From: an uncultured Anaerolineales bacterium
Lineage (GTDB): Bacteria; Chloroflexota; Anaerolineae; Anaerolineales; VGOW01
Assembly: GCA_964431175.1 (NCBI GenBank)
Contig: CAYSIV010000010.1
Span: 2,194 to 43,402, forward strand
DNA length: 41,209 nt
Direction of reading: 5' to 3'
The notes below the pieces were generated by a model. It searched no databases, was not told the DNA's origin, and worked only from the letters and a program-made list of their open reading frames with translations. Made by a program: the position numbers and the translations under genes. Below are positions 5,515-37,086 of this stretch, piece after piece (the first letter of the stretch is position 1; every line of letters begins with the position of its first letter).

Positions 5515-6627
5515 ATGCACTTTCGCCGCTTCCCTCGCCGCCGCCCGCCGTGGTGGCCCAATGATGAACCCTGGCCGCCAACGGGGCCGCCAGGCCTGCA
5601 CGCCTGGCGAAACATGCGCGGACGATTCGTGTGGCGGGTGGTCGGCCTGTTTGCGCTTCTGCCCATGTTAGCCATCGGCGGCTGTGGGCTGACAGTTGCC
5701 CTGGCATTTGTCGGCGCACAGGTCTTGCACATCCCGCGCGGCGCAATTCCCTTCCTGAGTTTCAGCAGTTTTGTAATCGTGGTTATGGCTTTTACCCTAA
5801 TAGGGCGAAGCGTGTTTCGCCTCACCGCGCCGGTGGGCGATTTGATGGAAGCGGCTGGGCGGGTGGAAGAGGGCGACTATACCGTGCGCGTGGCTGAGCA
5901 CGGCCCGCGTGATCTTCGCGCCCTGGCCCGCGCCTTCAACGCCATGACCGAGCGCCTGGAGAAGAACGAAGACCAACGCCGCAACCTGCTGGCCGACGTC
6001 ACCCACGAACTGCGCACGCCGCTCACGGTGGTGCAGGGCAACCTCGAAGCCTTGCTCGACGGTGTCTATCCGCCTGACGAATTGCACCTGGCGCCGATTC
6101 TGGAAGAGACGCGCGTGCTGTCGCGCCTGATTGACGACTTGCGGACGTTGACTCTGGCCGAGAGCGGCATGCTCAAACTACAACGTGAGCAAACCGACGT
6201 GGACGTGTTGCTCGGCGAGGCGGTTGCTTCGTTTCAAACCGGGGCCGACGCGGCCAATGTTGAACTGAGTCTCTCAACACCCGACTTGCCACTGCTCGAC
6301 ATTGATCCGGTTCGTATTCGTGAAGTGCTGTCGAACTTGATTGCCAATGCTTTGCGCTACACGCCGCGCGGCGGCAGGATACAAGTGACGGCTGTCGCCG
6401 CCGAAACCGGTGTCGCCATCTCTGTCAGTGACACCGGTTCTGGCATTTCCCTGGACGACCTGCCCCACATCTTTGATCGCTTCTACAAATCTGCCGAGTC
6501 GCGCGGGACGGGCTTGGGGTTGGCTATCGCCAAAAATTTAGTGGCCGCTCATGGCGGGGAAATCGTCGCCGAGAGCGCGCCGGGCCAGGGCACGACGATC
6601 CGTTTCACGCTGCCAACAAAAGGCTGA
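5515..6627 (+). CDS. HAMP-domain sensor histidine kinase
   Basis: It has two TM segments and a HAMP region. HisKA is 'VTHELRTPLT', and HATPase shows 'NLIANALRYTP', 'DTGSGI' and 'GTGLGLAIAK'. It sits immediately downstream of the cognate response regulator. Confidence 0.9.
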   Translation: MHFRRFPRRRPPWWPNDEPWPPTGPPGLHAWRNMRGRFVWRVVGLFALLPMLAIGGCGLTVALAFVGAQVLHIPRGAIPFLSFSSFVIVVMAFTLIGRSVFRLTAPVGDLMEAAGRVEEGDYTVRVAEHGPRDLRALARAFNAMTERLEKNEDQRRNLLADVTHELRTPLTVVQGNLEALLDGVYPPDELHLAPILEETRVLSRLIDDLRTLTLAESGMLKLQREQTDVDVLLGEAVASFQTGADAANVELSLSTPDLPLLDIDPVRIREVLSNLIANALRYTPRGGRIQVTAVAAETGVAISVSDTGSGISLDDLPHIFDRFYKSAESRGTGLGLAIAKNLVAAHGGEIVAESAPGQGTTIRFTLPTKG

Positions 6628-6681
6628 GCTTGTTTGCTACAGAGAGTACAGAGTAGTCTCAAACCTGGCCGGGTTAACAAC

Positions 6682-6718
6682 AACGGGCGCGCAGATGAAA
6701 TTTTGCGCGCCCGTTTTG
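6682..6718. terminator. Intrinsic terminator hairpin between convergent genes
   Basis: The stem is AACGGGCGCGC / GCGCGCCCGTT (11 bp) with a 12-nt loop, followed by TTTTGC on the + strand. Confidence 0.55.
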
Positions 6719-6736
6719 CTGAGAATGGATTGGTGG

Positions 6737-7144
6737 CTATTTGTGTTGGGTTAGGCTGAACCAGTTGCCACAGCCATCCCTGAAAATCGCCTCAACGCCG
6801 TAAGGCCGATCCTGCGGCGGCTGAATGAACTCGACGCCTTTGCTTGAAAGTTCCTTGAACGTTGTCTGGCAGTCGCTCGTCTCAAACACGCCCGCGCCCA
6901 TCGCGCCCTTTTCAAGCACGGCCTTGAGGTGGCCCACAGTGGCCTCGTCCATCATCCCGCCGCCGACGCCGTACAAGATGATTTCCAGGTCGGGTTGACC
7001 TTTTGGGCCAACGGTGAGCCAGCGGAAGCCGCCGTCCATCGTGAAGTCGGTGCGGACTTCGAACCCCAGCTTCTGGGTGTAGAAGTCCAGTGCCTTGTTT
7101 TGATCGGTAACATAGATGGTGGCATGTGAAAGTTTGCTGATCAT
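6737..7144 (-). CDS. VOC (glyoxalase/bleomycin-resistance/dioxygenase) family protein
   Basis: The 135-aa form starts 'MISKLSHATIYVTDQNKALDFYTQKLGFEV', typical of a VOC N-terminus. A GAGGAG Shine-Dalgarno lies upstream of the ATG at 7144. The longer ORF-track start at 7189 is unlikely. Confidence 0.85.
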   Translation of the reverse strand: MISKLSHATIYVTDQNKALDFYTQKLGFEVRTDFTMDGGFRWLTVGPKGQPDLEIILYGVGGGMMDEATVGHLKAVLEKGAMGAGVFETSDCQTTFKELSSKGVEFIQPPQDRPYGVEAIFRDGCGNWFSLTQHK

Positions 7145-7219
7145 TGTTGTTCTCCTCGCGTTGGTTTTAGCAAGAGAATACTGCAACATCCGTTCGAGGG
7201 CTTCTCGAAAATTGCTCTT

Positions 7220-7705
7220 TTATGAACTAGGGTGGCCGGTGACGCCCGACATTTTGAGGAAGCATCCAGGGATGTATTTGTGGGGTGACTGCCGCCGATC
7301 GGTTATGAGGGCGCGATACTCGGTAGGCGGCTGGCCGGTGGCCTTGTGGAAGAGGGCGCTGAATGAGCCTAAACTTTGGAAGCCCACGGCAAAACAGACT
7401 TCAGTGACGGTCAGAGAGCTGGAAGCCAGAAGCTCCCTGGCTTTTTCGATTCGTTTTTGGACAAGATACTGATGCGGCGTTCGTTTGTAGGTTTTGCGAA
7501 ACAGGCGGATGAGGTGATAACGCGAAAAGTTTGCCTGCCGTGCTATCTCATCCAGATCAAGCGGGCGGTCGTAACAGGCGTCAATGAAGGCGCGGGCGCG
7601 ACCCAGGCGTTCGCGAGACTTGAACAGCGTTGCATGTGATCTGGAAACGGGATGAAGCCTAGCCGACACAAGCTCAATCATACGACGGTCTGCCGGGAAA
7701 ATCAA
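7220..7705 (-). CDS. AraC/XylS-family transcriptional regulator (HTH-only, short form)
   Basis: The double HTH reads 'LDLDEIARQANFSRYHLIRLFRKTYKRTPHQYLVQKRIEKARELL' followed by 'VTEVCFAVGFQSLGSFSALFHKATGQPPTEYR'. The start could instead be the internal Met at 7681. Confidence 0.9.
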   Translation of the reverse strand: MIFPADRRMIELVSARLHPVSRSHATLFKSRERLGRARAFIDACYDRPLDLDEIARQANFSRYHLIRLFRKTYKRTPHQYLVQKRIEKARELLASSSLTVTEVCFAVGFQSLGSFSALFHKATGQPPTEYRALITDRRQSPHKYIPGCFLKMSGVTGHPSS

Positions 7706-7747
7706 AAGCTCACTTTTCGCTCATTCGTTTCGGCAACTCCATGGCTT

Positions 7748-10700
7748 TCACTTCCCTTCCGGCCACTGCTCGCAAGTTTTGCGATACGGCGCGCCGGGCA
7801 AGTATTGCGCCCACTCATCTTGAGTCAGATTGCGCCCGGCCAACACACAGGCCCGATCAACCCACCGCTTGACATTGAAGTCCAGGAAAATCACGGCGCC
7901 GGATTCAGTGCCTGCGGCCAACCACTGACCGTCGAGGCTGAACGCGAGGTTGAGCACATTACCCGCCGGGCTGGTCAACGGATCGCCGAGGTGTTGGCGA
8001 GAACCAACATCCCACAGGTTGATCGTGCTATCGTCACCACCGGAGGCCAGCAATCCGTTCGGGCCGAGGGCCAAACTGGTCACACTGCTGGACGAACCCA
8101 CCAGGCTGAGGCCCAGCGATTCGCCGGTCGCTACATCCCACAGGATGATCGTTTTGTCGCGACTGCCAGAAATCAGGGTCTTGCCGTCGGGGCTGAAGAT
8201 CACACTGAGGATGGCGTCTTTATGCCCAACGAACTGGCGGGTGATTGCCCCGGTCGTTACATCAAATAGACTAATCGTTGCGTCCCCACCGCCTTGCGCC
8301 AGAAATTTTCCATCGGGACTGAAAGCCACACTACGCACAACCTGACTCGAGCTGGCTAACTGCGCCCGTGGCTGGCCCGTCGCCACGTCCCATAGGATGA
8401 CCGTGTTGTCCGCACTACCCGAAGCCAATGCCTGACCGTCGGGGCTGAAGACGACACTCCGCACCGAGTCGGTGTGGCCGAGGAACGGCTGGCCAATTTG
8501 CTTCTTTGTCGCTACATCCCACAAAAGGACCGCGCCATCCGAACTGCCTGAAGCCAGCATCTTGCCATCCGGGCTGAAATCCAAAGCATTTACAGCATCT
8601 TTGTGACCGGTGAGTGGTTCGCCGATCAGTTCGCGCTTGGCCACCTGCCAAAAATTGATTGCGCCGTCAGCGTTGCCCGAAGCCAGCACTGTGCCATCGG
8701 GACTGAAATCCACTGCGCGCACGGCGGAGTTCTGGTCGGCCACGGTAACGGCATCGCCGAGCGGCTGTTGCACGACCACATTCCACAGCCGGGTCACTTC
8801 GTCCACACTGCTGGTAGCCAGGGTGCGGCCATCTTTGCTAAACGCCACGCTGGCGACCTCCTGTAGATGCTTGATCTCGTCCAACCGTTGCCCGCTGAAT
8901 ACATCCCATAGCACAACCACTTTGCTATTAATCGCGCTGGTCACCAGCAGTTTGCTATCGGGGCTGAAGGCGCTACTGCTGAAACGGCCTCCATCTTCCT
9001 GGCGCCAGACAACTTGATAATTGCCAGCCGCATTCCCCCACCCCAGGGGGGCTTCTTCACCTCCCGAGGCGATCCTCCGCCCGTCCGACGACCAGGATAC
9101 GCTTCGCACCGTGCCTTTATGATCCTGCAACACCTGCAAGGGTTGTTGGTTGGCAACATCCCATACCCGAAGGGTGTTATCCGCACTGCCGGAAATGAGC
9201 CGGACGCTGTCCGGCGACCAGGCGAGGCTCCGCACCGAGTTCCGGTGCCCTTCAAGCACGCCGAGTTGAGTCAACGTGGCCGCATCCCACAAAACAATTT
9301 TGCCGTTGCCCGTCCCGACAGCTAGTGTCCTACTATCGGGGCTGAAGGCGACAGTTAACAGCGCCGGGCCGCCGGCCACCGATAACTGTTTTTGCTCGCT
9401 ACTGCTCAGGTTCCACACAATGACATGGCCCTGGTCACTACTCGCCGCCAGCCGTTGTCCATCCGGCGACCAAGCGACACTGTAAACCGTCGTCGGGAAT
9501 TTAACCGGGGGTTGTTGGGTGGATGCCCGTTGCCCAACAACATCCCACAATACCACCTGACCATCACGGCTGGCGGCGGCCAACAACTTGCCATCGGGGC
9601 TAAAGGCGAGGCCATTCGCGAAGCTATAGGTGCTCTGGAGAGAAGCGACCAGTTTGGTGGTGGGGCGGGCACTCCGCTCCAATCCGGTGAGCAGACTGTT
9701 TCTCGCCTCCAGCGTGTCGTTGACGTTGTAAGCTTCAATCCCAAGCAGTAAAGCCAACTGCTGTTGCGTATTGAGGTAATTGAATGCCTGAGCTGAGAGT
9801 TGGCGCGAAAAGGCAATTTGCTCCTGGGCCTCGGCGTTGGCCCGGGCCGTGGCGGCCACATCGCGCTCAGCCTGGGCCGTTCCCCGTTGGGCCACGGCTT
9901 GAATGCTGGCGGCCTCGGCAGTGGCTTTTTGGGCAGAGGCCTGGGTGCTGGCGGCCTGGGCAATGTCTTTTTGGGCAACGGCCTGGGTGTTGGCAGCCTG
10001 AGCCGTGTTGGCGAGGGCGGCGTTACGGCTAGCCGTCTGGCTGGCTTGTCGGCCAAAGAAAGCGGCGACGATTGCCAGGAGGAAAGCCACCACGCCCACG
10101 GCGGTGATGACCCGGTTGCCCCGGCGCAGTCGTCTGGCGGCCTCGGTCTGCTCTTCAGCTCTCCGTTTTTCAGCTTCGGCAATACGGCGGGCATCGTCCA
10201 GTTCGCGCTGGCGAATCGCCTCCTTCTGACGCTCGGCGGCTTCCTCTGCATCCTTACTGGCCTGGACGAACTCGGCTTCCAGCGGATCCAAATCGTCGTA
10301 TTGCAAGGCCTCGGCCAGTAGCACACCGCGCCGCAAGGCGTTGGGGTCTTTGCCCAACCTCAGCCATTGCTCGGCGGCGGCGGTCAGCCGGTGGCGCTGG
10401 CGCAGAGTGATGCGTTCCTCGTCCAGCCAATCCACCAGGCGCGGCCAGTTGCGCAACAGCGCCTCGTGCGCTATTTCCATCTGCGCCTCGCTCCCGGACT
10501 CGCCTGGAGTCACACGCACCAGATGAGCGCGACTCAATTTATCCAGCACACCATCAACCCGGTCGTCCGCCTCGGCCTGGTGATAGAGCGCGCCGCGCCG
10601 CACGCGGTTGCTGATCATTTCCGCCCCATCGCCCGGCTTGACCATCTTGAGCAAGACGCGTTTGGCTGTGACCTGCTCTTCAGGGGTCAGGCTGTTGTAA

Positions 10701-11851
10701 AGCTCGTCGGCGGTGTTCGCCAGAGCCTGGCGGCCTCCACCTAGCTTGCGGTAGGCTTCCCAGGTGATCTGGTTGTGATCACGGCGCTCCCACAACTCGA
10801 GCAAAGTAAACTGCAAGAGCGGCAGAGCCGCCGGTTCGCCCAGAAGGTCATTCAGCAAGTCATCCACCACGCCTTCTTCAAACTTCAGGCCGATCATCGC
10901 CGCCGGCGCTTCAATGGCCTCACGCAGTTCGCTGGCGTTGAGCGGCCCCACCCGCACCACCGCTTGCTCGAAGAGTTTTTGGAAGTCGGGCAGGCGGGCC
11001 ACCTGCGCTTCAAATTCGGTCCGCATGGTAAGGATGACGACGTGCCCGGCGTTCATCAGGCCTGCCAGGTTGTCCACGAAGGTTTGCCTCAGCCCATCAT
11101 CGGCGCAGAGGGTGAAGGCTTCTTCAAATCGATTCACCACGATGACAACACCGCCGGTGAAGTGGCTGGCAATCAATTGAGTCAGGTGGCCCGGTCGTTC
11201 GAGAGTTAACTTGACCTGCTCACGAGTCCACTCTGCGGAGTTGGCATTGGGCGGGCGGGTCAATTCGGACAAGTTGGCGAGTGGGTTCGAGCCGGGCACG
11301 ATGGGTGGAAAGTAATGCCAACCGGCGCTATCGGTCAGCGCGCCGCTCTTGAGAGCCGGAATCAACCCTGCCCACACCAGCGACGACTTGCCACTGCCCG
11401 ACGGGCCCAACACGGCCAGCAGAGGAGTCTTCTTTAGTTTGTTGACAATGTCTTTCACTAATCGTGTACGCCCAAAGAACACGCCCTTATTCGCTTCGCC
11501 AAACGCGTCCAGGCCCACATAAGGGCAGAGGGCATCGTCCAGTTCGGGGGCGAGATTTGAGTCGAACTCGGCCAGAGTGGCATCGGGCGGCTCATAGCCG
11601 GGGCGGTAGAGGCGGGTGCTCCAGTAGTCGAGAAAGCCCTGGGCCGCCTGACGGTCACCATCTTCGTCGAGCAGGACGCCGGTGGCCCGCCCCTTCAAGA
11701 TGAAGGCTTCGGCCTCAGCCAGCAGTTCGGGAGATTTGGCCTGCTCGCGCTGGCGCTTGAGCAGGTTGCGATAGGCGGCGCGCATCGCTTCCAACGACGG
11801 AAAGCGATCTACTGGCGCACTATCGGCAGTTTGAGACGGTACGTTGTTCAT
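7748..11851 (-). CDS. STAND-type P-loop NTPase fused to a single TM helix, an Ala/Gln repeat linker and 14 WD40 blades
   Basis: The 1367-aa protein reads as follows:
- An approximately 105-aa helical N-terminal domain.
- 'CPYVGLDAFGEANKGVFFGR' then Walker A 'GPSGSGKSS' (nt 11381-11407).
- 'VVIVVNRFEEAF' in the Walker B position.
- 'LPLLQFTLLELWERR' and 'HEALLRNWPRLVDWL'.
- A coiled coil, then the hydrophobic helix 'VITAVGVVAFLLAIVAAFFG'.
- 14 repeats of the 'FSPDG...LASGS...WD' type. Confidence 0.85.
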   Translation of the reverse strand: MNNVPSQTADSAPVDRFPSLEAMRAAYRNLLKRQREQAKSPELLAEAEAFILKGRATGVLLDEDGDRQAAQGFLDYWSTRLYRPGYEPPDATLAEFDSNLAPELDDALCPYVGLDAFGEANKGVFFGRTRLVKDIVNKLKKTPLLAVLGPSGSGKSSLVWAGLIPALKSGALTDSAGWHYFPPIVPGSNPLANLSELTRPPNANSAEWTREQVKLTLERPGHLTQLIASHFTGGVVIVVNRFEEAFTLCADDGLRQTFVDNLAGLMNAGHVVILTMRTEFEAQVARLPDFQKLFEQAVVRVGPLNASELREAIEAPAAMIGLKFEEGVVDDLLNDLLGEPAALPLLQFTLLELWERRDHNQITWEAYRKLGGGRQALANTADELYNSLTPEEQVTAKRVLLKMVKPGDGAEMISNRVRRGALYHQAEADDRVDGVLDKLSRAHLVRVTPGESGSEAQMEIAHEALLRNWPRLVDWLDEERITLRQRHRLTAAAEQWLRLGKDPNALRRGVLLAEALQYDDLDPLEAEFVQASKDAEEAAERQKEAIRQRELDDARRIAEAEKRRAEEQTEAARRLRRGNRVITAVGVVAFLLAIVAAFFGRQASQTASRNAALANTAQAANTQAVAQKDIAQAASTQASAQKATAEAASIQAVAQRGTAQAERDVAATARANAEAQEQIAFSRQLSAQAFNYLNTQQQLALLLGIEAYNVNDTLEARNSLLTGLERSARPTTKLVASLQSTYSFANGLAFSPDGKLLAAASRDGQVVLWDVVGQRASTQQPPVKFPTTVYSVAWSPDGQRLAASSDQGHVIVWNLSSSEQKQLSVAGGPALLTVAFSPDSRTLAVGTGNGKIVLWDAATLTQLGVLEGHRNSVRSLAWSPDSVRLISGSADNTLRVWDVANQQPLQVLQDHKGTVRSVSWSSDGRRIASGGEEAPLGWGNAAGNYQVVWRQEDGGRFSSSAFSPDSKLLVTSAINSKVVVLWDVFSGQRLDEIKHLQEVASVAFSKDGRTLATSSVDEVTRLWNVVVQQPLGDAVTVADQNSAVRAVDFSPDGTVLASGNADGAINFWQVAKRELIGEPLTGHKDAVNALDFSPDGKMLASGSSDGAVLLWDVATKKQIGQPFLGHTDSVRSVVFSPDGQALASGSADNTVILWDVATGQPRAQLASSSQVVRSVAFSPDGKFLAQGGGDATISLFDVTTGAITRQFVGHKDAILSVIFSPDGKTLISGSRDKTIILWDVATGESLGLSLVGSSSSVTSLALGPNGLLASGGDDSTINLWDVGSRQHLGDPLTSPAGNVLNLAFSLDGQWLAAGTESGAVIFLDFNVKRWVDRACVLAGRNLTQDEWAQYLPGAPYRKTCEQWPEGK

Positions 11852-13014
11852 TCGATCATCCCCAGCACAGAGGCCAGCGGCGCGCCGATTTTGCGAAGCT
11901 CACCGCACAGCGTTTTCAAATCAACATCCACCCGATAAAAACGATCCCCGGCCCGGCGGCGGTAACTGCGGAAGGCGCGTTTGACTTTGACCGGATTGTT
12001 GGAAGCCAGGGTTTCGTCCAGGCCATCGCCTTCTTTTTTGATGGCGACGGCCCATTCGTCGGTCAGGCCGTCGTACAAGGGGGCGGCTTTGGTCTTCAAG
12101 TCGGGCCACGACATTTCAAGTTCTTCCAGGTCTTGATCAATGGCAGTTTCGAGCCGCCGCAGTTCGACGTCAATGTCTTGCCAATGGTCGTGCTCGTCCA
12201 CGAGCGCGCTCAGGGCGCGGTCGAGGTTGCTCAGGGCTTCGATGCCGGTTTTAAATTGGCCGACTTTTTCGGGATCGAGGTCAAGCGAGACTAGATTCTC
12301 ACTTACTTGCGAGAGGGTTTGGACGAGGGCGGGCAGGCGCAGGGCGCGGGCGGTTTGATTCAAAAGGGCATTGATGCGCGCCGGCTGAACAGCCAGGAGA
12401 CGGTTCAACCGCCAGGTTACGCGCTTGAGTTGTTTGTCGTCCAGCTTCTCGATGGCCGTGCTGAGGTCGGCGCGAGCCAGTACCGCTTCTTCAATCCATT
12501 GCACATCCTGCTTGGGTGCGGACGGGCGTTCGGCCACCTGGCGCAGTTCGGCGACGATGCCTTCGAGGGTGAGCATGTAGTCGGTGAGGTTGTCGAGGGC
12601 CATCTCGTCGTCGGGGAAGCGGGTGGCGGCCTGGGTGATGCCGGTGAAGCAGTGGAACTGGAGGCGATGCAGGAGATCGTGCAGGTCTTTGTAGTCGCCC
12701 AGCGTGTCCACCTGATCGCGCGCCGCCGAGAAGTCGGTCCCGAAGGCGATGACGGCGTTGCGCACGTCGGAGGAGCGCTCCATCAGTTCGTGCAGGGCGG
12801 CCAGGCCTTCGCCGACGGCGTCGGGGGCCGCGCCCCCGATGATGACCGTGGCCCCGGCGGCGGCTTGGATGACGTTGCCGCCGGCGGTGATCTTGTCACC
12901 CCCGGTCACGTCGCCACTGCCGACGGTGATTTGGGCGCTTTCGCCGATGGAGACACCGCCCTGCTGGACTGAACCAGAGGGAGGAATGGTATCCGGTTGT
13001 GGGTCTTCGGTCAC
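11848..13014 (-). CDS. Hypothetical protein, Gly-rich repeat N-terminus plus all-helical body; translationally coupled to the STAND NTPase
   Basis: 388 aa with a GTG start. The N-terminus 'GGVSIGESAQITVGSGDVTGGDKITAGGNVIQAAAGATVIIGG' looks beta-helix or bactofilin-like. The remainder looks helical. Its TGA stop overlaps the ATG of the downstream gene (ATGA at 11848-11851). Confidence 0.6.
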   Translation of the reverse strand: MTEDPQPDTIPPSGSVQQGGVSIGESAQITVGSGDVTGGDKITAGGNVIQAAAGATVIIGGAAPDAVGEGLAALHELMERSSDVRNAVIAFGTDFSAARDQVDTLGDYKDLHDLLHRLQFHCFTGITQAATRFPDDEMALDNLTDYMLTLEGIVAELRQVAERPSAPKQDVQWIEEAVLARADLSTAIEKLDDKQLKRVTWRLNRLLAVQPARINALLNQTARALRLPALVQTLSQVSENLVSLDLDPEKVGQFKTGIEALSNLDRALSALVDEHDHWQDIDVELRRLETAIDQDLEELEMSWPDLKTKAAPLYDGLTDEWAVAIKKEGDGLDETLASNNPVKVKRAFRSYRRRAGDRFYRVDVDLKTLCGELRKIGAPLASVLGMIE

Positions 13015-13142
13015 GATAATAGTCTTCTTTCAAAGGAAAGGGGCGGTTGTTGATATGATTGTATGCTAATAAAGGAAAAACACAACCACTTTGCTCCTAT
13101 TTTCCGTTACGTTCGTTAAATCCATTCCTCCTATTCCTTCGG

Positions 13143-13151
13143 TGTTATAAT
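13143..13151 (+). promoter_or_regulatory. Candidate extended -10 promoter element (TGtTATAAT) upstream of prfA
   Basis: TGTTATAAT lies 45 nt upstream of the prfA ATG in a divergent intergenic region. There is no good -35 hexamer. Confidence 0.3.
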
Positions 13152-13195
13152 CATTTCACCCTCCCACCTCTTGTGGGATTTTTTGTGTGACCGCC

Positions 13196-14257
13196 ATGCT
13201 CGATAAACTCACCGGAATCGAAACCCGCTACGAAGAACTAAACCGTCTGATGTCCGACCCGGCTCAGTTGGATAACTACAGCAAAGTCGCCGAGTTCGCC
13301 AAGGAACGGTCGGCGCTGGAAGAAATTGTGACGAAGTTCCGCGAACACAAAGAGGTGCTCAAGAACCTGGCCGACGCCCGCGCCCTGCTCGACAACGAGG
13401 AAATGAAGGAACTGGCCGAGGCCGAAATCCCCGACCTGGAGAAAAAGCAAGTCGAACTCGAAGCGCAACTTAAGGAGCTTCTCCTGCCCCGCGACCCGCG
13501 CGACCAGAAGAGCGTGATTGTGGAAATTCGAGCCGGGGCCGGTGGCGACGAAGCCGGGTTGTTCGCCGCCGAGCTTTACCGCCTTTACATGCGCTACGCC
13601 GAAGGGCGCGGCTGGAAGGTGTCAATGATGTCGTCGAACGAGAGCGGCATCGGCGGCTTCAAGGAAGTGATCTTTGAAGTGAGCGGCAAGGGCGCGTACT
13701 CGCGGCTCAAATTTGAGTCGGGCGTGCACCGGGTTCAACGGGTGCCCGTCACCGAGTCGTCGGGCCGGATTCACACCTCCACCGCCACCGTGGCCGTGCT
13801 GGCCGAGGTAGATGAAGTGGAAATTGACGTGCCGGACAAAGACGTGAAGATCGACACCTATCGCGCCTCGAGCGCGGGCGGCCAGAACGTGCAGAAGAAC
13901 GCGACCGCAGTGCGCCTCACGCACCTGCCAAGCGGACTCGTGGTGACGTGCGAAGACGAGCGCTCGCAGACCCAAAACCGCCTGCGGGCGATGAGCATTT
14001 TGCGGGCGCGGCTCTATGAAGCTGAAATGGAAAAGCGGCAGATGGCGGCGTCTGTCGAGCGCAAGAGCCAGGTGGGCAGTGGCGACCGGAGCGAGAAGAT
14101 TCGCACCTACAACTTTCCGCAGGGCCGCGTCACCGATCACCGCATCGGCGTCTCGTCTTTCAACCTGCCCGCCGTGATGGACGGCGACATTGACCTGTTT
14201 ATTGACGAACTGGCAACGCGCGAGCAAGCGGAGAAATTGGCGGAGGCGGGGGTATGA
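13196..14257 (+). CDS. prfA: Peptide chain release factor 1
   Basis: The N-terminus 'MLDKLTGIETRYEELNRLMSDP' is typical of RF1. The tripeptide 'PVT' sits in 'RVQRVPVTES', and the GGQ motif in 'SSAGGQNVQKNATAVRLTHLPSG'. I prefer the ATG at 13196 over the GTG at 13187. Confidence 0.97.
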   Translation: MLDKLTGIETRYEELNRLMSDPAQLDNYSKVAEFAKERSALEEIVTKFREHKEVLKNLADARALLDNEEMKELAEAEIPDLEKKQVELEAQLKELLLPRDPRDQKSVIVEIRAGAGGDEAGLFAAELYRLYMRYAEGRGWKVSMMSSNESGIGGFKEVIFEVSGKGAYSRLKFESGVHRVQRVPVTESSGRIHTSTATVAVLAEVDEVEIDVPDKDVKIDTYRASSAGGQNVQKNATAVRLTHLPSGLVVTCEDERSQTQNRLRAMSILRARLYEAEMEKRQMAASVERKSQVGSGDRSEKIRTYNFPQGRVTDHRIGVSSFNLPAVMDGDIDLFIDELATREQAEKLAEAGV

Positions 14258-15522
14258 AGCGAAAAGGGAAAGAATTGAAGGAAAGAAGGGAAACCGACAC
14301 GCTCAGTCTGGAGTCGGTTGAGGGTGCCGCAACAAACGAAGAAAAGCGTGTAGCCGTTTATGACTCTTCCTCAAGGCCCACCATCCCAAGTAGGGTCACT
14401 CCTGAAACGCCTCTAAGCGATCTTAATCTCAACTGGCGTGAAAAAGATTTGCCGGAGCGAGAGCGCACCAAACATGTTCATCGCCTTCACCCTTATCTTG
14501 GTAAATTTATTCCCCAGCTTGCAGAGATTTTTCTACGGAAGTTCCAACCAACCTTAGTTTGTGATCCCTTTTCAGGTTCAGGGACAACTTTAGTCGAGGC
14601 AACGGCTTTCGGCGTCGACTCAGTCGGGTGTGATATATCGGACTTCAATTGCTTGTTGACCCGAGTCAAGACTGCGCGCTACAACCTTCCTTTATTGGAA
14701 CGCGAGATTAAAGACATTATGACAAAGCTGAATCTTCAGCTAAGCGACGATGGACTGTTTGTAAGGAATTTGCCTGAGTCTGTGACCGATAATGATTACT
14801 TGAATGCCTGGCTCCATCCGAATGCTCTCAGGCAGTTGCTTTACTATAGTGAACTAATCCCAAGCTACCAGCATCAGGACTTCCTCAAAGTGGTTTTGTC
14901 ACGCGCAGCAAGGTCAGCAAGATTGACGACACATTTTGACCTGGATTGGCCTAAGAAGCCGCAGACCGAGCCCTATTACTGCTTCAAACATAGCCGCACT
15001 TGCCAGCCAACGGATGATGCTTTGCAGTTTCTTAATCGCTATAGTCTTGATGCCTTGAAACGAGTCAAAGAGTTTGATGTGATCCGGAAGGATGTAGCAA
15101 CCCAGGTTATTTATGGAGATGCGCGAAGCGCGACTTTCTCAAGCGGAATCGACGTTGTAATTACCTCACCGCCCTACGTCGGAATTATTGATTACCATGA
15201 ACAACACCGATACGCTTATGAACTGCTTGGACTGGCCTGGGGCGCAGAAAAGGAAATTGGCCCGGCTTTCAAAGGCAGTTCCAAAGTGGCGCAGAAGACG
15301 TACGTAGAGCAAATATCAGATGTATTTACTAATCTGCGGCGCAGTCTAACGTCAGACGCCGTAGCAGTTATCATAGTCAATGACCGTTACCAACTTTATG
15401 ATGGCTTGCCGGAGCGCTTGGGGTTCAGGTTGGAAGACAGACTGGAACGCCACGTTAATCGGCGCACTGGGATTAGAAGTGGCGAGTTCTTCGAGTCGAT
15501 TTTTGTATGGAGGCGAAGCTAG
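14254..15522 (+). CDS. Amino (N4-cytosine or N6-adenine) DNA methyltransferase
   Basis: 'HRLHPYLGKFIPQL' is followed by the AdoMet motif I 'DPFSGSGTT' (nt 14563-14589). About 190 aa later come 'YGDA' and the catalytic 'VVITSPPYVG' (SPPY at nt 15166-15177). The start ATG overlaps the prfA stop (ATGA). Confidence 0.85.
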   Translation: MKRKGKELKERRETDTLSLESVEGAATNEEKRVAVYDSSSRPTIPSRVTPETPLSDLNLNWREKDLPERERTKHVHRLHPYLGKFIPQLAEIFLRKFQPTLVCDPFSGSGTTLVEATAFGVDSVGCDISDFNCLLTRVKTARYNLPLLEREIKDIMTKLNLQLSDDGLFVRNLPESVTDNDYLNAWLHPNALRQLLYYSELIPSYQHQDFLKVVLSRAARSARLTTHFDLDWPKKPQTEPYYCFKHSRTCQPTDDALQFLNRYSLDALKRVKEFDVIRKDVATQVIYGDARSATFSSGIDVVITSPPYVGIIDYHEQHRYAYELLGLAWGAEKEIGPAFKGSSKVAQKTYVEQISDVFTNLRRSLTSDAVAVIIVNDRYQLYDGLPERLGFRLEDRLERHVNRRTGIRSGEFFESIFVWRRS

Positions 15523-16371
15523 ATGAAAAGTTCGCGCAAATCAAATTTGCCTGACGACCTGAAGCAAGAAATCAGGAGTTATTTATCAAAGAAAGTCAGG
15601 GAGAAATTCGATAAGCGCGAAGAACTTCGCCAAGATTTGGAGGATCAAGACTTGCCATTTCATCGCCGAATATTGCATTTTCTAGGCGAGGATGAGCTAA
15701 AGCGTTTGCTATTTGAAGGTAGTTTTGTTCATGGCTTACACACAAGCATGGGTAACTGGTATCAGTATATGGCAGGTCGCATTGCTGTGCATCATTTTGG
15801 GCTACCTCAAAATCGCCAAGTTACTCAAGTTAAAGTCCGCGGCTATTTATCTGAGGATGTCGTTGCGTGTATAAGCAAAATCATGCTTGACCTTGATGGC
15901 AAGGTGACCGCGCCCAATTATCTGGCTGAAGGCCGGCAGATCAAAGAAGCCATTCTTCGAAGTGACCCTGACGACAAGACCCATGACCGAGAAATCATGG
16001 TGGACTTGTACGTGCCCGAAGCAAAGGATTGGCTACTTGCAGTTGAGATGAAAACACCTAAGACGAACATCTCCATTTTTCGTGGCGAGAAGCGAAAACT
16101 GCTAGAGTTGCGAGCGCTGCTGTTTCAGGAATTTCCCGATAAACCAATTGACAAATTCAAGGTGTGTCTGGCCTTCTCCTACAATCCTTATAAAACACTC
16201 AAAGGCTTTGAGAAAAAGTGGGGCTTTGGAAAAAAACTTATTGACTATGGCAATGATTTACTGATAGGTGAAGACTTCTGGAATTTTATAGGCGGTGAAG
16301 GAACTTATCAGAGTTTGCTGAATGTGGTGAGACAGGTTGGATACACACTGAAAGCCAAAGATTTTAGATGA
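15523..16371 (+). CDS. PD-(D/E)xK nuclease-like protein, probable type II restriction endonuclease (TdeIII-like by recollection)
   Basis: 282 aa, abutting the methyltransferase stop. A D-x13-E-x-K pattern, 'MVDLYVPEAKDWLLAVEMKTPK', lies at nt 16003-16053. The N-terminal 'LPFHRRIL...SFVHGLHTSMGNWYQYMA' and C-terminal 'EDFWNFIGGEGTY' resemble restriction-enzyme families as I remember them. Confidence 0.55.
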   Translation: MKSSRKSNLPDDLKQEIRSYLSKKVREKFDKREELRQDLEDQDLPFHRRILHFLGEDELKRLLFEGSFVHGLHTSMGNWYQYMAGRIAVHHFGLPQNRQVTQVKVRGYLSEDVVACISKIMLDLDGKVTAPNYLAEGRQIKEAILRSDPDDKTHDREIMVDLYVPEAKDWLLAVEMKTPKTNISIFRGEKRKLLELRALLFQEFPDKPIDKFKVCLAFSYNPYKTLKGFEKKWGFGKKLIDYGNDLLIGEDFWNFIGGEGTYQSLLNVVRQVGYTLKAKDFR

Positions 16372-16928
16372 GCCGTAGAGACCGTATGAAAGACGAAGAA
16401 CTGCAAATCCTTATCCTCGAATCTCTGACCGAGTTTTACCAGCGTCGAACGCGGCTTTTGGAAACCCTGAAATTTCGAGACGCTCTCAGGCAGGAGAATC
16501 CATATTTGCTGAGGGTGAATATGGGGCATGGTGGACCAAAGATAGTTGAGCATATCTTGTCTGCTCACCTGAGTCTATCGGATGAACGTTTCTTTGGTGA
16601 AGCTTTCCTAAAGATTGCCAGAGTTGTCTCAAAAGGCTTCGTTTCGCCCAATCAGTTTGGCTATGGTCACTTGTTTAACCAGGCATTTTGGCAGGAGATA
16701 ACAGGCGATCCGGATTTTTATCTGAAAATAATTCGATTGATGGATAATGACACAGTTAGGCAATGCCGTTATGAATTTGACAACGCATGGGCAAATGCAA
16801 ACAATCGTTGCGTTGGAGAGTTTCTCTCCGAATTTTGTAACGAGGACGGAAACATAAATTGGGAACTACTAGTGAAATCGAACAGCGGGTCAGAAAAACC
16901 GCGGAAACAAAAGAAAAAAACAGCATAA
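16368..16928 (+). CDS. Paralog of the preceding nuclease-like protein, lacking the D..ExK core
   Basis: 186 aa. Residues 41-90 align without gaps to residues 41-90 of the 282-aa protein (Q42, acidic 43, P45, aromatic 46, R49, G77, aromatic 80, A84). 'AFWQEITGDPDFY' matches 'DFWNFIGGEGTY'. The roughly 160 aa between these landmarks in the neighbour are absent here. Confidence 0.5.
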   Translation: MSRRDRMKDEELQILILESLTEFYQRRTRLLETLKFRDALRQENPYLLRVNMGHGGPKIVEHILSAHLSLSDERFFGEAFLKIARVVSKGFVSPNQFGYGHLFNQAFWQEITGDPDFYLKIIRLMDNDTVRQCRYEFDNAWANANNRCVGEFLSEFCNEDGNINWELLVKSNSGSEKPRKQKKKTA

Positions 16929-17740
16929 GAATAGCTTTATCTGACGTTGCTGTTTCTACCCTTCCCTCCCGCGAAGCCGCCCTCCTCCTCGCCCACGTCC
17001 TCGGCCAAAGCCGTGAGTGGGTGCTGGCCCATCCCGAAGCCGAACTGACGCCCGAACAGAGCGGACGCTTTGCCAAACTGATTGAACAAGCTGAACGTGG
17101 CACGCCCCTGCCTTACCTGCTAGGCCAGTGGGAATTCTTCGGTCTCAGCTTCAAAGTCACGCCCGACGTTCTCATTCCACGACCGGAAACCGAATTGCTG
17201 GTTGAAAAAGCGTTGGGGAAAACCCCAAAACCCAAAACCCCAAATTCCAAAATCGCTGACGTTGGAACCGGAAGTGGCATCATTGCCATCACGCTCGCAG
17301 TCAAACTTCCGCAAGCTCATATCATCGCCACCGACGTTTCCGTCGCCGCGCTGGAAGTAGCGCGGGCAAATGCAGTTGCTCACAGCGTGGCCGACCGGGT
17401 AAAATTCATTCATGGCGATCTGCTGGAAAGCGCGGGCAAAGTGAACCTGATTTGCGCCAACCTGCCCTACATCTCAACCGTCGAACTCACAACCCTGCCG
17501 GTCGCCAAACACGAGCCGACTCTGGCCCTCGACGGCGGCGAGGACGGTTTGCGGCTCATTGAGCGATTGCTGGCAACCGCAGGCGATCATCTTCTGCCGG
17601 ACGGCGCACTGCTGGCCGAGATTGCGGCCACACAAGGCGAAGCGGCGGCATCCCTGGCCCACCACTACTTCCCCTCAGCGCGAGTGGAAGTCTATAAGGA
17701 TTTGGCCGGACTAGATAGAGTGCTGGAAATTGAAATTTGA
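16859..17740 (+). CDS. prmC: Release-factor glutamine N5-methyltransferase (HemK/PrmC)
   Basis: 'PLPYLLGQWEFFGL', 'VLIPRPETE', motif I 'DVGTGSGIIAI' and the catalytic 'ANLPYI' (an NPPY variant) are present. The only in-frame start upstream of the conserved N-terminus is the ATG at 16859. It lies inside the island and overlaps the previous ORF by 70 nt. Confidence 0.88.
   Translation: MGTTSEIEQRVRKTAETKEKNSIRIALSDVAVSTLPSREAALLLAHVLGQSREWVLAHPEAELTPEQSGRFAKLIEQAERGTPLPYLLGQWEFFGLSFKVTPDVLIPRPETELLVEKALGKTPKPKTPNSKIADVGTGSGIIAITLAVKLPQAHIIATDVSVAALEVARANAVAHSVADRVKFIHGDLLESAGKVNLICANLPYISTVELTTLPVAKHEPTLALDGGEDGLRLIERLLATAGDHLLPDGALLAEIAATQGEAAASLAHHYFPSARVEVYKDLAGLDRVLEIEI
17215..17254. repeat. 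CCCAAAA-type periodic tract inside prmC
   Basis: GGGGAAAACCCCAAAACCCAAAACCCCAAATTCCAAAATC encodes 'GKTPKPKTPNSKI' just before motif I. An inverted relative lies at 17775-17798. Confidence 0.8.
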
Positions 17741-30626: not shown

Positions 30627-33600
30627 ATGGCGATGATGAAGCGTTCGACGTTGCGTTACTTAGGAGGCGCGGGGCTTCTGGCCACTGCCTACTTTGGCGC
30701 GGCCCAATTTGGGTTGCAGTTCTCCACCCTTTCACCCAATGTAATATCGGTGTGGCCGCCAACCGGCTTGGCTTTGGCCGCCCTGCTGTTGTTTGGCAAT
30801 CGCCTGTGGCCTGGCGTGGCTCTGGGCGCCGTTCTCGCCACAGTCTCAACCGGCGCGCCGCTTGAAATTGTGGTTGGCGTCGCAGTTGGTAACACACTCG
30901 AAGCGCTGGTGGGCGCACACCTCCTTCGGCGGGTTGGCTTTCATCACACCCTGGATCGGATTCGCGATGTCCTCTGCCTCCTGCTTTTTTCCGCCGGGTT
31001 GAGCACGACACTCAGCGCTACCATTGGCGCGGCCAGTTGGTGTCTCGCCGGCAGAATCGCGTGGTCTGAGTATGGCTCGATCTGGCCGGTGTGGTGGCTG
31101 GGCAATGCAACGGGTGCGCTGGTGGTGGCCCCGATGTTGCTCACCTGGGGATCGTCTCCTCGCCCCAGATGGCCGCTCGGAAAACTTATCGAGGTGGGGG
31201 CGCTGGTGGCTTCAGCGCTAATCCTGAGTCAAACAGCCTTTGGCCAAAGTTTTTTATCGCGCTCCGTCCTCAACCTGGCGGCTTACTTCATCTTTGCCTT
31301 GCTGATCTGGGTCGCGCTCCGGTTCGGCCCGCGTGGAACCGCGACGTTAAGTTTTATCGCCTCGAGCCTGGCCGTTGTTGGAACGGCCCGGGGTGTTGGC
31401 GCTTTTGGCCAACAGACGATTGATAACAGCCTGTTGTTTTTGTGGGCGTATGTCATTGGAGTCTCCGTAGTGTCCATGCTCCTCGCCGCCGCCGCTCGCG
31501 AGCGCATGCACGCCGTTGCCGCCCAGGCGCAATTGCTCGAGCGCCTCAAATCTCTGGAGCCGATCAGTTCGCCTCTGCCAAGCGGCGACGCGGAACCTGA
31601 CCAGGCGGTGAGCGCATTCCGGTTGGGCGCTCCCTTGCTAACAGTGGCCATGGTGGCCATCATCATCATGCTCGTCTTTGAAGTCGCCAAGGAAGTGCTG
31701 GATGTTGGGCTAGCCGAATGGCAGTCACATGCTGTCACCATTGCCTTCGTCGGCCTGGTCGCGCCGCTGGGCGCTTACCTGGCGTTGCGCCGACAGAAAA
31801 TGCTTTACCAGCAAATCATCGACGAGGTCAGTGAGCGACGCCGGGTGGAAGAAATACAAAAGCGGCTGACCGAACGCACGCACCAGCTTGAGCAGACGAC
31901 CCAAACCTTGCAGGCGCTGGTGACCGAGCGCCAACGGGCAGAAGAAGCCCTGCAACAGGAACGCGACTTCGCCCTGACGGTCATGAACGCTTTGGGACAA
32001 GGGGTCACCGTTACCGGCCCCGGCGGGCTTTATGAGTATGTGAACCCGGTTTACGCCCGCATGTTGGGCTATACGCCGGAAAATATGATTGGCATGACGC
32101 CGCAAGACATCACCGTGCCCGAAGATTTTCATATTCTGCAACAGGCCCATGCCCGGCGCAAAATGGGCGAGACGACTTCCTACGAAACCAGGTTACTGCG
32201 GGTAGATGGGAGCCTGATCCACGCCTTGACCACTGGCGTGCCGCGCTGGCATAACGACCAGGTGCTCGGCACCATTGCCGTCGTCACCGACCTCACCGAG
32301 CGCAAGCAAACGGAAGATGTTTTGCGTGAAAGCGAGGAGCAATTGCGCCAGTTTTTCGAACTGGCCCCCACTGGCAAAGCTGTCACCACCCTGGATGGGC
32401 GCTACATTCACGCCAACCGGGCCTACTGTGAACTGGTAGGCTATACCCTTGAAGAGTTGCAGACCCGGACGTTTACCGAGATCACCCACCCTGATGATGT
32501 AGATGATGATTTGTCGCTGTTTCAGCGGCCGGCTCAAGATAAATTGCCCCAATATTACCTTGAAAAACGTTACATCCGAAAAGGCGGTGATATCGTTCAT
32601 GTTCTGATTCAGACGACGCTGTTGCACGACGCCGACGGCCAGCCTAAATACATCATCGGCCAGGCGGTGGACATCACCGACCGCAAGAATGCGGAAGAGA
32701 AAATCAGGAAGCTCAACGAGGAGTTGGAACTGCGCGTGACCGAGCGCACGATGCAACTGGCCGCCGCCAACCGCGACCTGGAGAGAGAAATTGCCGAACG
32801 TCAGCGGATGCACGAACAGTTGCTTCACACGACCTCTGAATTGCAAGCAGTGTTTCAGGCCTCGCCGGATTTGTATTTCCGGCTTGACCCGGAAGGCACC
32901 TACCTCGATTATCTGGCCGGGCCAACATCGGAACTCTACGCCTCTCCGCAAACGTTCATGGGGAAAAAGATTCGCGACGTAATGCCGCCGGAAATCGCCG
33001 GCCAGCTTCACGCAGCCGTGCGGAAAGCGTACCAGACGCGGACGATGACGGCTGTGGAATACACCTTGCCAACCTCGGATGGCGCGAACTATTTTGAGGC
33101 CCGCCTATTCCCCTTTCTTGAAACGCAGGTGATCGCCATCGTCCGGGACATTACTCGGCGCAAGCAGGCCGAGGAGCGCATCCGCAAACTGAATGTGGAC
33201 CTGGAGCGCCGGGCGCAGGAATTGGAAGCGGCCAACAAGGAACTGGAAGCGTTCAGCTATTCGGTGTCTCACGATTTGCGCGCCCCTCTGCGGGCCATTG
33301 ACGGCTTCTCGCGCATCCTGCTCAAGGATTTTGCGCCGCAGGTTAGCCCGGACGCGCAACGTTACATACGTCTGGTAACCGACAATGCCAACCGCATGGG
33401 TCAATTGATCGACGACTTGCTGGCCTTCTCACGCCTGAGCCGCCAGCCGGTAAAAAAGCAACCCATTGCCCTGAGCGAGTTGGTGCAACAGACTGCCGAT
33501 GATCTGCGCCTGGATTATCAGGGCCGCCAGGTAAAATTTGTCATTGGCGACCTGCCCGCCTGCCAGGGCGACCCGCCTTTACTTAAACAGGTCATCACCA

Positions 33601-33896
33601 ATTTGTTGTCTAATGCCATCAAGTTTACGCGCCAGCGCGAAGCGGCCCGCATCGAAATCGGCTCATTTAGCAACGACGGTGAAGTCGTCTACTTTGTCAA
33701 AGACAACGGAGTGGGATTCGACATGCGCTACGCGCATAAGCTCTTTGGGGTGTTCCAGCGTCTGCATCGCAGTGAAGACTACGAAGGCACTGGCGTAGGG
33801 TTGGCTATCGTTCAGCGCATCATTCACCGGCACGGCGGGCGGGTTTGGGCCGAGGCCGGGCCGGATGAAGGCTCAACTTTCTACTTTACGATCTGA
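30627..33896 (+). CDS. MASE1 / multi-PAS sensor histidine kinase
   Basis: The N-terminus is a polytopic MASE1-like region ('VWPPTGLALAALLLFGNRLWPG'). Three PAS-like modules are separated by coiled coils. HisKA is 'FSYSVSHDLRAPLRAI', and HATPase shows 'NLLSNAIKFT', 'DNGVGFD' and 'GTGVGLAIV'. Confidence 0.9.
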   Translation: MAMMKRSTLRYLGGAGLLATAYFGAAQFGLQFSTLSPNVISVWPPTGLALAALLLFGNRLWPGVALGAVLATVSTGAPLEIVVGVAVGNTLEALVGAHLLRRVGFHHTLDRIRDVLCLLLFSAGLSTTLSATIGAASWCLAGRIAWSEYGSIWPVWWLGNATGALVVAPMLLTWGSSPRPRWPLGKLIEVGALVASALILSQTAFGQSFLSRSVLNLAAYFIFALLIWVALRFGPRGTATLSFIASSLAVVGTARGVGAFGQQTIDNSLLFLWAYVIGVSVVSMLLAAAARERMHAVAAQAQLLERLKSLEPISSPLPSGDAEPDQAVSAFRLGAPLLTVAMVAIIIMLVFEVAKEVLDVGLAEWQSHAVTIAFVGLVAPLGAYLALRRQKMLYQQIIDEVSERRRVEEIQKRLTERTHQLEQTTQTLQALVTERQRAEEALQQERDFALTVMNALGQGVTVTGPGGLYEYVNPVYARMLGYTPENMIGMTPQDITVPEDFHILQQAHARRKMGETTSYETRLLRVDGSLIHALTTGVPRWHNDQVLGTIAVVTDLTERKQTEDVLRESEEQLRQFFELAPTGKAVTTLDGRYIHANRAYCELVGYTLEELQTRTFTEITHPDDVDDDLSLFQRPAQDKLPQYYLEKRYIRKGGDIVHVLIQTTLLHDADGQPKYIIGQAVDITDRKNAEEKIRKLNEELELRVTERTMQLAAANRDLEREIAERQRMHEQLLHTTSELQAVFQASPDLYFRLDPEGTYLDYLAGPTSELYASPQTFMGKKIRDVMPPEIAGQLHAAVRKAYQTRTMTAVEYTLPTSDGANYFEARLFPFLETQVIAIVRDITRRKQAEERIRKLNVDLERRAQELEAANKELEAFSYSVSHDLRAPLRAIDGFSRILLKDFAPQVSPDAQRYIRLVTDNANRMGQLIDDLLAFSRLSRQPVKKQPIALSELVQQTADDLRLDYQGRQVKFVIGDLPACQGDPPLLKQVITNLLSNAIKFTRQREAARIEIGSFSNDGEVVYFVKDNGVGFDMRYAHKLFGVFQRLHRSEDYEGTGVGLAIVQRIIHRHGGRVWAEAGPDEGSTFYFTI

Positions 33897-33910
33897 AGTG
33901 AGAGGCGATC

Positions 33911-34357
33911 GTGTCGCAAGATGAGACGGGGATTTTGTTGGTTGAGGACAATCCTCACGACGTGGAACTGGCTTTGCACGCCCTGAAGCTAACCCACCTG
34001 GCCGAGCGGGTTGATGTGGTGCGGGATGGCGCTGAGGCGCTGGATTTTATATTTTGCGCAGGGGCTTACGCCCACCGCAATATTGGCAACGGCCCGAAGT
34101 TGATCCTGTTGGATTTGAAACTGCCCAAAATGGACGGGCTGGAAGTTCTGCAACGCATCAAATCAGATGCGCGCACCCGCCAGTTCCCGGTTGTCATGCT
34201 CACAACCTCTCGGGAAGAGCGCGACATCGCTCAGAGTTACCAACTGGGCGCGAATAGTTACATTGTCAAACCGGTGGACTTCGAAAGTTTTACCGAAGCC
34301 GTGCGGCAATTGGGCTTATACTGGTTGTCGCTCAACCACCCGCCGCAAGGAAGTTGA
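33911..34357 (+). CDS. Stand-alone receiver (CheY/Rcp1-like) response regulator
   Basis: 148 aa with a GTG start. '[13 protein letters not shown]', '[13 protein letters not shown]', 'VVMLTTS' and 'YIVKP' are present, with no output domain. Confidence 0.9.
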
Positions 34358-34412
34358 AACGGTTCGCCAATCTTCAATTCAGGGTTGGCGATCTACAATA
34401 AAATCATCGGAC

Positions 34413-37079: not shown

Positions 37080-37086
37080 TCACTTT

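Follow-up and report, generated by a model that had tools for sequence, protein, structure and literature searches.

A Coupled nSTAND1 NTPase and Helical Partner Protein in Anaerolineales: A Candidate Outside-In Receptor and Adaptor Module

We analyzed a 41,209-nucleotide (nt) stretch of the genome of an uncultured Anaerolineales bacterium (Chloroflexota; contig CAYSIV010000010.1, positions 2,194 to 43,402 of the forward strand, assembly GCA_964431175.1), which as a whole is hereafter called the window. Two overlapping open reading frames (ORFs) of this window encode a partner protein (ORF-A) and a nucleoside triphosphatase (NTPase; ORF-B), and the latter belongs to the nSTAND1 clade of the signal transduction ATPases with numerous domains (STAND). 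We consider it rather probable that the two genes form one operonic module, consisting of an outside-in nSTAND1 receptor and an effector-carrying adaptor, with a role that is most likely in conflict or immunity. The initial annotation of this DNA had suggested an uncharacterized two-component STAND system, and this suggestion gained support from the pairing of the genes, a constant module in the partner, and swapped outputs, with defense as the presumed function.

Structure and Pairing of the Two Genes

ORF-A (388 amino acids [aa], GTG start; 11848..13014, minus strand) and ORF-B (1367 aa; 7748..11851, minus strand) are the only long ORFs on the minus strand in this region. At the junction (...atcgaATGAacaac), the stop codon of ORF-A and the start codon of ORF-B overlap by 4 nt in an ATGA sequence (11848..11851, minus strand), which is a putative translational coupling of the two genes. 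The ORF coordinates and the junction sequence thus confirmed the two frames and the overlap as they had been annotated. A promoter and terminator scan of 7100-13300 gave counts that were not above those of shuffled sequence.

The pairing was addressed by a locus scan with one genome per species, which yielded 45 loci from Anaerolineales of the Chloroflexota, Cyanobacteria, and Acidobacteriota, 43 of them with downstream DNA. In all 43 testable loci, the partner gene was followed by a same-strand gene encoding both nSTAND1 and the N-terminal domain of ORF-B (hereafter B_N). Conversely, a reverse look-up from four NTPase homologues on long contigs recovered an upstream gene with the partner module in each case (4/4), giving 47 of 47 testable loci for both directions. 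One of the observations by which the initial annotation would have been refuted was a lack of conservation of the 388-aa gene next to homologous NTPases, and the gene was found there throughout, in three phyla. The spacing between the two genes was typically -4 nt (about 20 related loci, and also L049 and L052, described below). B_N identity in the downstream NTPases was 45-67% in 42 of 43 loci and 35% in one outlier (48-63% in L049-L052), and B_N was absent from neighboring nSTAND1 paralogues without a partner gene of their own. Because B_N travels strictly with the partner, it would be the docking site of the partner module and may itself have an adaptor role. The window has all three features of the family, namely an upstream partner module, a B_N-nSTAND1 protein, and a transmembrane (TM) helix after the NTPase. 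In the NTPase homologue of L003 (9190-10533), two GAF domains are fused before B_N, through which the receptor would gain a further input, for small molecules in the cytoplasm.

ORF-B starts with B_N (aa 1-108; 11528..11851, minus strand), which was modeled as a three-helix bundle (H20-36, H41-60, H64-81) by AlphaFold2 (AF2), with a predicted local distance difference test score (pLDDT) of about 88-96 over aa 21-80. The lack of a recognizable effector at the NTPase N-terminus, as first described, was borne out by Pfam, in which aa 1-118 had no match even at E<=10; Foldseek with B_N gave no significant match (best E 1.7, to generic three-helix folds). A word-indexed homologue search with B_N alone returned only 7 fragments, and a longer query was used instead. 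The nSTAND1 NTPase module (PF20703; aa 110-503; 10343..11524, minus strand) matched profile positions 1-378 of 379 with 373.1 bits (cut-off 27.1) and an E value of 3.2e-111, which places the large protein, with its C-terminal WD40 repeats, among the STAND NTPases as proposed. The P-loop is intact (Walker A GPSGSGKSS with K155, aa 149-157; nt 11381-11407, minus strand). The peptides CPYVGLDAFGEANKGVFFGR, LPLLQFTLLELWERR, and HEALLRNWPRLVDWL, quoted along with this motif in the initial annotation, are likewise all in ORF-B; however, CPYVGLDAFGEANKGVFFGR (aa 109-128) lies 20 residues N-terminal of the P-loop and not directly before it. In the Walker B region (VVIVVNRFEE, aa 235-244; nt 11122-11151, minus strand), the Asp of the nSTAND1 consensus hhVVDQFEE is replaced by Asn240 (VVNRFEE). 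This Asn was observed in the window and in both of its orthologues, whereas Asp occupied this position in all other proteins in which the motif was found, 36/36 from the loci and 108/108 from the database.

The remainder of ORF-B, all on the minus strand, comprises a charged juxtamembrane coiled coil recognized from its sequence (aa 505-578; 10118..10339), a single TM helix assigned by hydropathy (aa 581-603; 10043..10111), an Ala/Gln/Thr-rich stalk (aa 604-735; 9647..10042), and 14 WD40 blades in two propellers with a short C-terminal tail (aa 736-1367; 7751..9646; stop codon 7748-7750). The hydrophobic helix, VITAVGVVAFLLAIVAAFF from aa 581, has a mean Kyte-Doolittle value of 2.84 over 19 aa. 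Of the blades counted, 13 have a W/F-D/N-type dipeptide at their end and 1 is degenerate; Pfam recognized 12 WD40 stretches, and the WD40 and beta-propeller families span aa ~740-1340. Hydropathy and blade count therefore agreed with the order given in the initial annotation, a coiled coil, then one hydrophobic helix, then 14 blades. In particular, ORF-B has the layout of STAND proteins and of proteins like the nucleotide-binding oligomerization domain-like receptors (NLRs), with a central NTPase followed by a repeat sensor, and homologues carry TPR or other domains in the latter place. Tandem Repeats Finder (TRF) detected a tandem repeat of 42 bp x 2.7 in the stalk (14-aa Ala/Gln-rich units; 9887-10000) and no high-identity blade repeats in the WD40 region; thus, concerted repeat evolution of the fungal style was not seen.

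ORF-A is composed of a Gly-rich beta-prone motif, GGVSIGESAQITVGSGDVTGGDKITAGGNVIQAAAGATVIIGG (aa 1-61; 12832..13014, minus strand), in the slot that TIR, CHAT, or EAD domains occupy in homologues, and of an all-alpha constant module (aa 62-388; 11851..12831, minus strand; stop codon 11848-11850). The protein had been described as lacking a recognizable motif, and it matched no family among the Pfam, NCBIfam, and PADLOC models. We discounted matches to Vinculin (E 0.021) and to arcadin-4 (E 8e-4), the latter well short of its cut-off, as coiled-coil or helical noise. AF2 modeled the module as a bundle of long helices (aa ~62-388, pLDDT ~85-97) and gave pLDDT values <50 over aa 1-61; the protein appeared as a soluble helical bundle in which no helix has TM-like hydrophobicity. 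A Foldseek search of the PDB with this model revealed no fold relative (best E 0.13, TM-score ~0.2), and sequence and profile searches of the PDB were likewise negative.

An exhaustive profile search placed the partner in a family of 1,786 cluster representatives at 50% identity with E<=1e-3, or 880 with E<=1e-30, with hosts in the Chloroflexota, Cyanobacteria, and Acidobacteriota. Throughout this family, the conserved module (aa ~62-388 of ORF-A) is always C-terminal. Across 150 divergent members, K109, H112, D113, H116, N215, H275, W278, Q279, D363, and C370 were near-invariant. The invariant pattern HD...H...HD...D in an all-alpha fold prompted us to consider an HD-phosphohydrolase, which was rejected because no HD-domain structure was present among the fold matches. 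The ratio of nonsynonymous to synonymous substitution rates (dN/dS) against two orthologues was 0.16-0.22 in every cytoplasmic segment, the Gly-rich one included (0.17-0.19 over aa 1-61), which indicated that both genes are under purifying selection.

The Two Variable Ends of the Module

The partner family varies at its N-terminus. A Pfam census of 89 divergent members with long N-termini identified TIR in 25, CHAT in 23, EAD1 and EAD7 in 8 each, EAD10 in 4, and DUF4062 in 3, and Pkinase, HEPN_Swt1, BTAD, DUF1269, and Peptidase_C25 in 1 each. The partner had earlier been put forward as a candidate effector or adaptor, and these N-terminal TIR, CHAT, EAD1, EAD7, EAD10, kinase, and HEPN domains on homologues of its C-terminal module strengthen that view; the partner N-terminus is a predicted swappable output slot. 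In roughly half of the family, the N-terminus measures only 20-100 aa; the Gly-rich beta-prone type accounts for many of these short N-termini and is apparently the most frequent among them.

In related loci, the Gly-rich motif recurs on a second protein. The motif subtype of the partner is also N-terminal on an adjacent nSTAND1-TM-propeller protein without B_N in L005 (3690-7097) and L028 (205-4383), on a downstream B_N-less nSTAND1 protein that is cut by the contig end in L002 (11984-13087), and on a small TCAD2-domain protein in L001 (6015-6449). The cognate motif pair of L005 scored 106, compared with 21-31 between different subtypes. Thus, the Gly-rich motif seems to behave like an adaptor motif in these loci and could represent a new motif of EAD-like or BASS-like type. 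The low AF2 confidence over aa 1-61 of ORF-A is compatible with amyloid formation but is not evidence for amyloid.

Two loci with an EAD10-type partner, L049 (Kovacikia minuta, CP083582) and L052, are densely surrounded by genes for other EAD10 proteins, among them EAD10-NACHT, EAD10-NACHT-HEAT-TIR, and small EAD10 proteins; an FHA-TIR-EAD9 protein and a stand-alone caspase-family gene are found close by. EAD10 is common to the partner and the neighboring NACHT proteins at both loci, and we regard these as putative multi-receptor islands.

The second variable end is the sensor of the NTPase protein, which lies beyond a conserved membrane segment. Exactly one TM-like helix, located 36-90 aa after nSTAND1, was present in 34 of the 36 locus homologues with a full-length module, and Lys and Arg were richer on the N-side flank of this helix in 27 of the 35 TM proteins, the window included. 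Since the NTPase must be cytoplasmic, the C-terminal region should be outside, in line with this positive-inside bias. The term "membrane-anchored" of the initial annotation is accurate for the one TM helix, which is conserved, and understates a layout in which the WD40 sensor is predicted to be outside the cytoplasm. After the TM helix, homologues bear WD40, TPR, SH3_3, pYEATS, CAP, or FGE-sulfatase domains, several of which are typically extracellular.

The same division into a conserved inside and a diverged sensor was observed between close relatives, for which we compared the window with two metagenomic contigs carrying the pair. The identity of the partner to the two orthologues was 91% and 83%, and that of B_N, nSTAND1, and the coiled coil was 84-86%, 86-90%, and 85-86%, respectively; the value was 56% for the TM helix with the stalk and only 35-40% for the WD40 region. 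The orthologous NTPases have 1053 and 1049 aa and are ~315 aa shorter than ORF-B, so that they probably contain fewer WD40 blades. More specifically, DNA homology to both relatives ends at 9861-9886, at the edge of the stalk tandem repeat; this points to a replacement of the sensor cassette at this site, and the edge may have served as the recombination joint for the swap.

The pair adjoins prfA (13187-14257) in the window and in both relatives. Between prfA and prmC (16859-17740), the window carries a type II restriction-modification (R-M) insertion of ~2.7 kb with a low GC content of 0.44-0.51 (14254-16928), which consists of an N6_N4 DNA methylase (14254-15522), a RE_TdeIII endonuclease (15523-16371), and a RE_EcoO109I-like fragment (16368-16928); this insertion is absent from both close relatives, in which prfA is directly followed by prmC. 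The closest relative (L047) contains two tandem partner/nSTAND1 pairs (6502-9605 and 10001-14331); the partner of the extra pair is 50% identical to ORF-A, its NTPase has 644 aa, and both partners of this locus have a Gly-rich N-terminus. In the other relative, the neighborhood of the pair contains genes for a serpin, a Y1 transposase-like protein, and a PIN-domain protein, the last with a small ORF upstream. Elsewhere in the window, and unrelated to the gene pair, three large sensor histidine kinases (HKs) lie in a row (30627-40814): MASE1-PAS-HK (30627-33896), REC-GAF-HK (34167-37079), and REC-REC-GAF-HK (37971-40814).

Proposed Signaling and Its Alternatives

We proposed that ORF-B would be a single-pass receptor, with B_N, the NTPase, and the coiled coil inside the cell and the stalk and two WD40 propellers outside, and that ORF-A would be a soluble adaptor, the helical module of which (~325 aa) docks on B_N and the N-terminus of which is the output slot. 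A ligand bound by the external propellers would signal via the TM helix and the coiled coil, leading to nucleotide-dependent oligomerization of the NTPase; B_N and the bound adaptor would thereby be clustered, and the adaptor N-termini would be activated by proximity. In relatives, a TIR, CHAT/caspase-like protease, kinase, or HEPN RNase domain would deliver the output, or an EAD would bring in additional effectors. In the window, it would be a 60-aa Gly-rich beta-prone homotypic adaptor, EAD-like or amyloid-signaling-like, which would self-assemble or recruit proteins with the same motif. Regulated cell death and alarm signaling after an extracellular threat has been sensed would be examples of the conflict or immune role of such a module.

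Several points weigh against this proposal. Co-occurrence is the basis on which B_N is the likely docking site of the partner module, and hydropathy and charge bias are the basis on which the WD40 sensor of ORF-B should be extracytoplasmic. The ORF-A of the window has no enzymatic effector domain and no Pfam EAD, the Gly-rich motif standing in their place, and a hidden Markov model (HMM) of this motif detected no second protein bearing it in the 41-kb window. With Asn for the family-invariant Walker B Asp, the NTPase of the window and its orthologues may hydrolyze ATP poorly and may be a hydrolysis-impaired or "locked" variant; together with the Gly-rich output, this substitution calls for caution as to how, or whether, the system fires in the window copy. 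The near-invariant His, Asp, Cys, and Gln residues of the partner module hint at a metal or ligand site or at catalysis, and not at a pure scaffold. PADLOC returned for ORF-B only a WD40-driven match to HEAT-ARM_XIII and weak P-loop matches to mad3 and mad8, and none for ORF-A, and no defense model of PADLOC-DB v2, including those of Avs1-5 and bNACHT, matches the pair. Finally, the pair occupies the same site next to prfA in three related genomes and is thus not obviously mobile.

Some of these points could be read as signs of decay, in that the window copy would be a decaying or neutralized relic, no longer able to signal after the loss of its enzymatic effector and of the Walker B Asp; Asn240, the missing effector domain, and the lack of a cognate motif partner in the window would all be expected of such a relic. 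We regard this as very improbable, as dN/dS stays at 0.16-0.22 over the Gly-rich segment, the partner module, B_N, the NTPase, and the coiled coil, neither ORF is broken and the overlap persists in the orthologues, the Asn is common to the three orthologues, and the Gly-rich type is apparently the commonest short N-terminus. The near-invariant residues H112, D113, H116, H275, Q279, D363, and C370, for their part, would fit a partner that is no signal-passing adaptor but regulates the NTPase, for example as its inhibitor, chaperone, or antitoxin-like lock, and has a His/Asp/Cys metal or catalytic site of its own, and a stoichiometric regulator would be equally consistent with the strict 1:1 pairing, the translational coupling, and a window ORF-A without an effector domain. 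A pure inhibitor, however, is not expected to bear TIR, CHAT, kinase, HEPN, or EAD domains in most of the lineages with long N-termini; the PDB searches linked the partner, by fold or by sequence, to no enzyme and to no known regulator; and the NTPase itself has no effector, so that the output must come from elsewhere. For these reasons, a regulator appears quite unlikely to us.

The alternative that we take more seriously, while still considering it unlikely, keeps the receptor and adaptor machinery and changes its use, from defense to cell-cell or kin recognition or to developmental, envelope, or extracellular-cue signaling in filamentous or aggregating bacteria. An outward-facing sensor, as predicted here, the synteny of the pair next to prfA in three relatives, and the lack of matches to known defense models would suit such a use, as would the many hosts of the partner family that belong to filamentous cyanobacterial genera and the GAF-GAF variant of the NTPase in L003, which suggests a small-molecule input. 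On the other hand, the swapped outputs are mostly TIR and CHAT, with HEPN among them, domains typically seen in abortive infection and regulated cell death; the sensor proves hypervariable when near relatives are compared; and R-M genes, PIN genes, and paralogous pairs are clustered in the vicinity. Moreover, allorecognition with a cell-death output would be the same mechanism, which makes the boundary with conflict a soft one. The outside-in receptor and adaptor module, with conflict or immunity as its most likely role, is the reading that we favor.

Relation to Known Systems

Avs and bNACHT proteins, as reportedly described by Gao in 2022 and Kibby in 2023, consist of one polypeptide each, to which the effector is fused and in which a cytoplasmic sensor recognizes phage proteins. 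They resemble the window pair in having a STAND switch, a repeat sensor, a death effector, and an expected oligomerization on ligand recognition, whereas the window pair has its effector slot on a second protein, the adaptor, and a sensor with a predicted extracytoplasmic location. The Avs/bNACHT-type likeness drawn in the initial annotation thus extends to the STAND switch and repeat sensor but not to a match with the Avs or bNACHT models of PADLOC. Among eukaryotic proteins, Apaf-1 is a cytosolic STAND ATPase with two WD40 propellers that recruits a caspase through an adaptor domain, and the Toll-like receptor (TLR), which has no NTPase, senses through external repeats, crosses the membrane with one TM helix, and clusters TIR-bearing adaptors in the cytoplasm. 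The comparison of the window pair with Apaf-1 and TLR/MyD88 is one of analogy, and we claim no homology beyond the STAND, WD40, and TIR superfamilies.

The nSTAND1 clade was named by Kaur, Iyer, Burroughs, and Aravind (eLife 2021; PMC8195603), who described it in NTPase-FGS systems and noted its occasional presence in EACC1 systems. The window family shares its NTPase clade with these conflict systems, and EAD1, EAD7, and EAD10 occur in it as well; however, the EAD or effector of the conflict systems is fused to the NTPase N-terminus, where the window family has the constant B_N. Instead, the window family carries its EAD or effector on a separate obligatory partner with a constant module of ~325 aa that is outside the domain libraries, and in nearly all of its members one TM helix separates the NTPase from the sensor, in distinction from those systems. 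The EACC1 component (Kaur et al., eLife 2020; PMC7159879) is a small domain with one conserved Gly-rich TM helix and short flanks, encoded by a 5' constant-component gene that precedes a 3' multidomain gene, the product of which has a constant caspase and a variable C-terminus. The window pair is similar in its order of a 5' constant gene and a 3' multidomain gene, in its membrane association, and in the nSTAND1 module that the 3' protein of EACC1 systems sometimes contains; it differs in that the 5' protein is a soluble helical module of 325 aa with a variable N-terminus and in that the TM helix is in the NTPase protein. An EACC1 identity for ORF-A was rejected, given that it has no Pfam match, no TM-like helix, and a soluble helical model.

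In EAD-coupled recruitment, the same EAD is found on a core component and on separate effector proteins (Kaur et al. 2020; PMC7159879), and in Bell/BASS-NLR pairs a beta-prone motif of ~25 aa is common to both proteins (Dyrka et al. 2020; bioRxiv 10.1101/2020.01.06.895854). By analogy, the Gly-rich motif may mirror both the EAD-coupling principle and the amyloid-motif pairs of BASS. The window family resembles BASS-NLR pairs in having a small gene next to an NLR-like gene, in occurring in multicellular bacteria, and in the matching motifs at L001, L002, L005, and L028. Nevertheless, BASS pairs have the motif at the effector C-terminus and at the N-terminus of the adjacent NLR itself, whereas in the window family the partner bears it at its N-terminus, a further nSTAND1 receptor without B_N or a TCAD2 protein is the other carrier, and there is no Bell domain; the window itself, unlike BASS pairs, has a single copy of the motif. 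A census of STAND clades from 2026 (PMC13581612) includes nSTAND, with WD40 and FGE sensors, and TM segments and possible periplasmic sensor domains have been described in some STAND targets of diversity-generating retroelements (Doré et al. 2024). In the literature texts that were searched, with supplementary tables outside the search, neither the partner family nor B_N nor the obligatory pairing was described.

STAND proteins and NLR receptors are regarded as intracellular sensors, and the characterized bacterial ones (Avs and bNACHT) detect phage proteins in the cytoplasm. The pair described here is unusual in that its sensor is predicted to be outside the membrane and its output slot is on an obligatory adaptor without a Pfam, NCBIfam, or PADLOC model, in a family of ~1,800 clusters in three phyla. 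A broader proposal, which we advance only tentatively, is that the pair represents a large unannotated family of outside-in transmembrane NLR-like receptors, in which a hypervariable extracytoplasmic sensor would drive a STAND oligomer in the cytoplasm and this oligomer would activate an adaptor of new helical fold; the adaptor would bear interchangeable TIR, caspase-like, or EAD outputs, or else a new Gly-rich signaling motif, possibly amyloid-like, that would wire several receptors and effectors together. If confirmed, the pair would provide a new adaptor domain pair (the partner module and B_N), a candidate new short signaling motif, and a testable case of outside-in immune or cell-death signaling in bacteria, for which the TIR and CHAT versions in related loci are ready for biochemistry. 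The family would also give a name to many "hypothetical proteins" beside nSTAND1 genes and, if the proposal is true, would be a bacterial functional counterpart of TLR/MyD88-type signaling built on an NLR engine.

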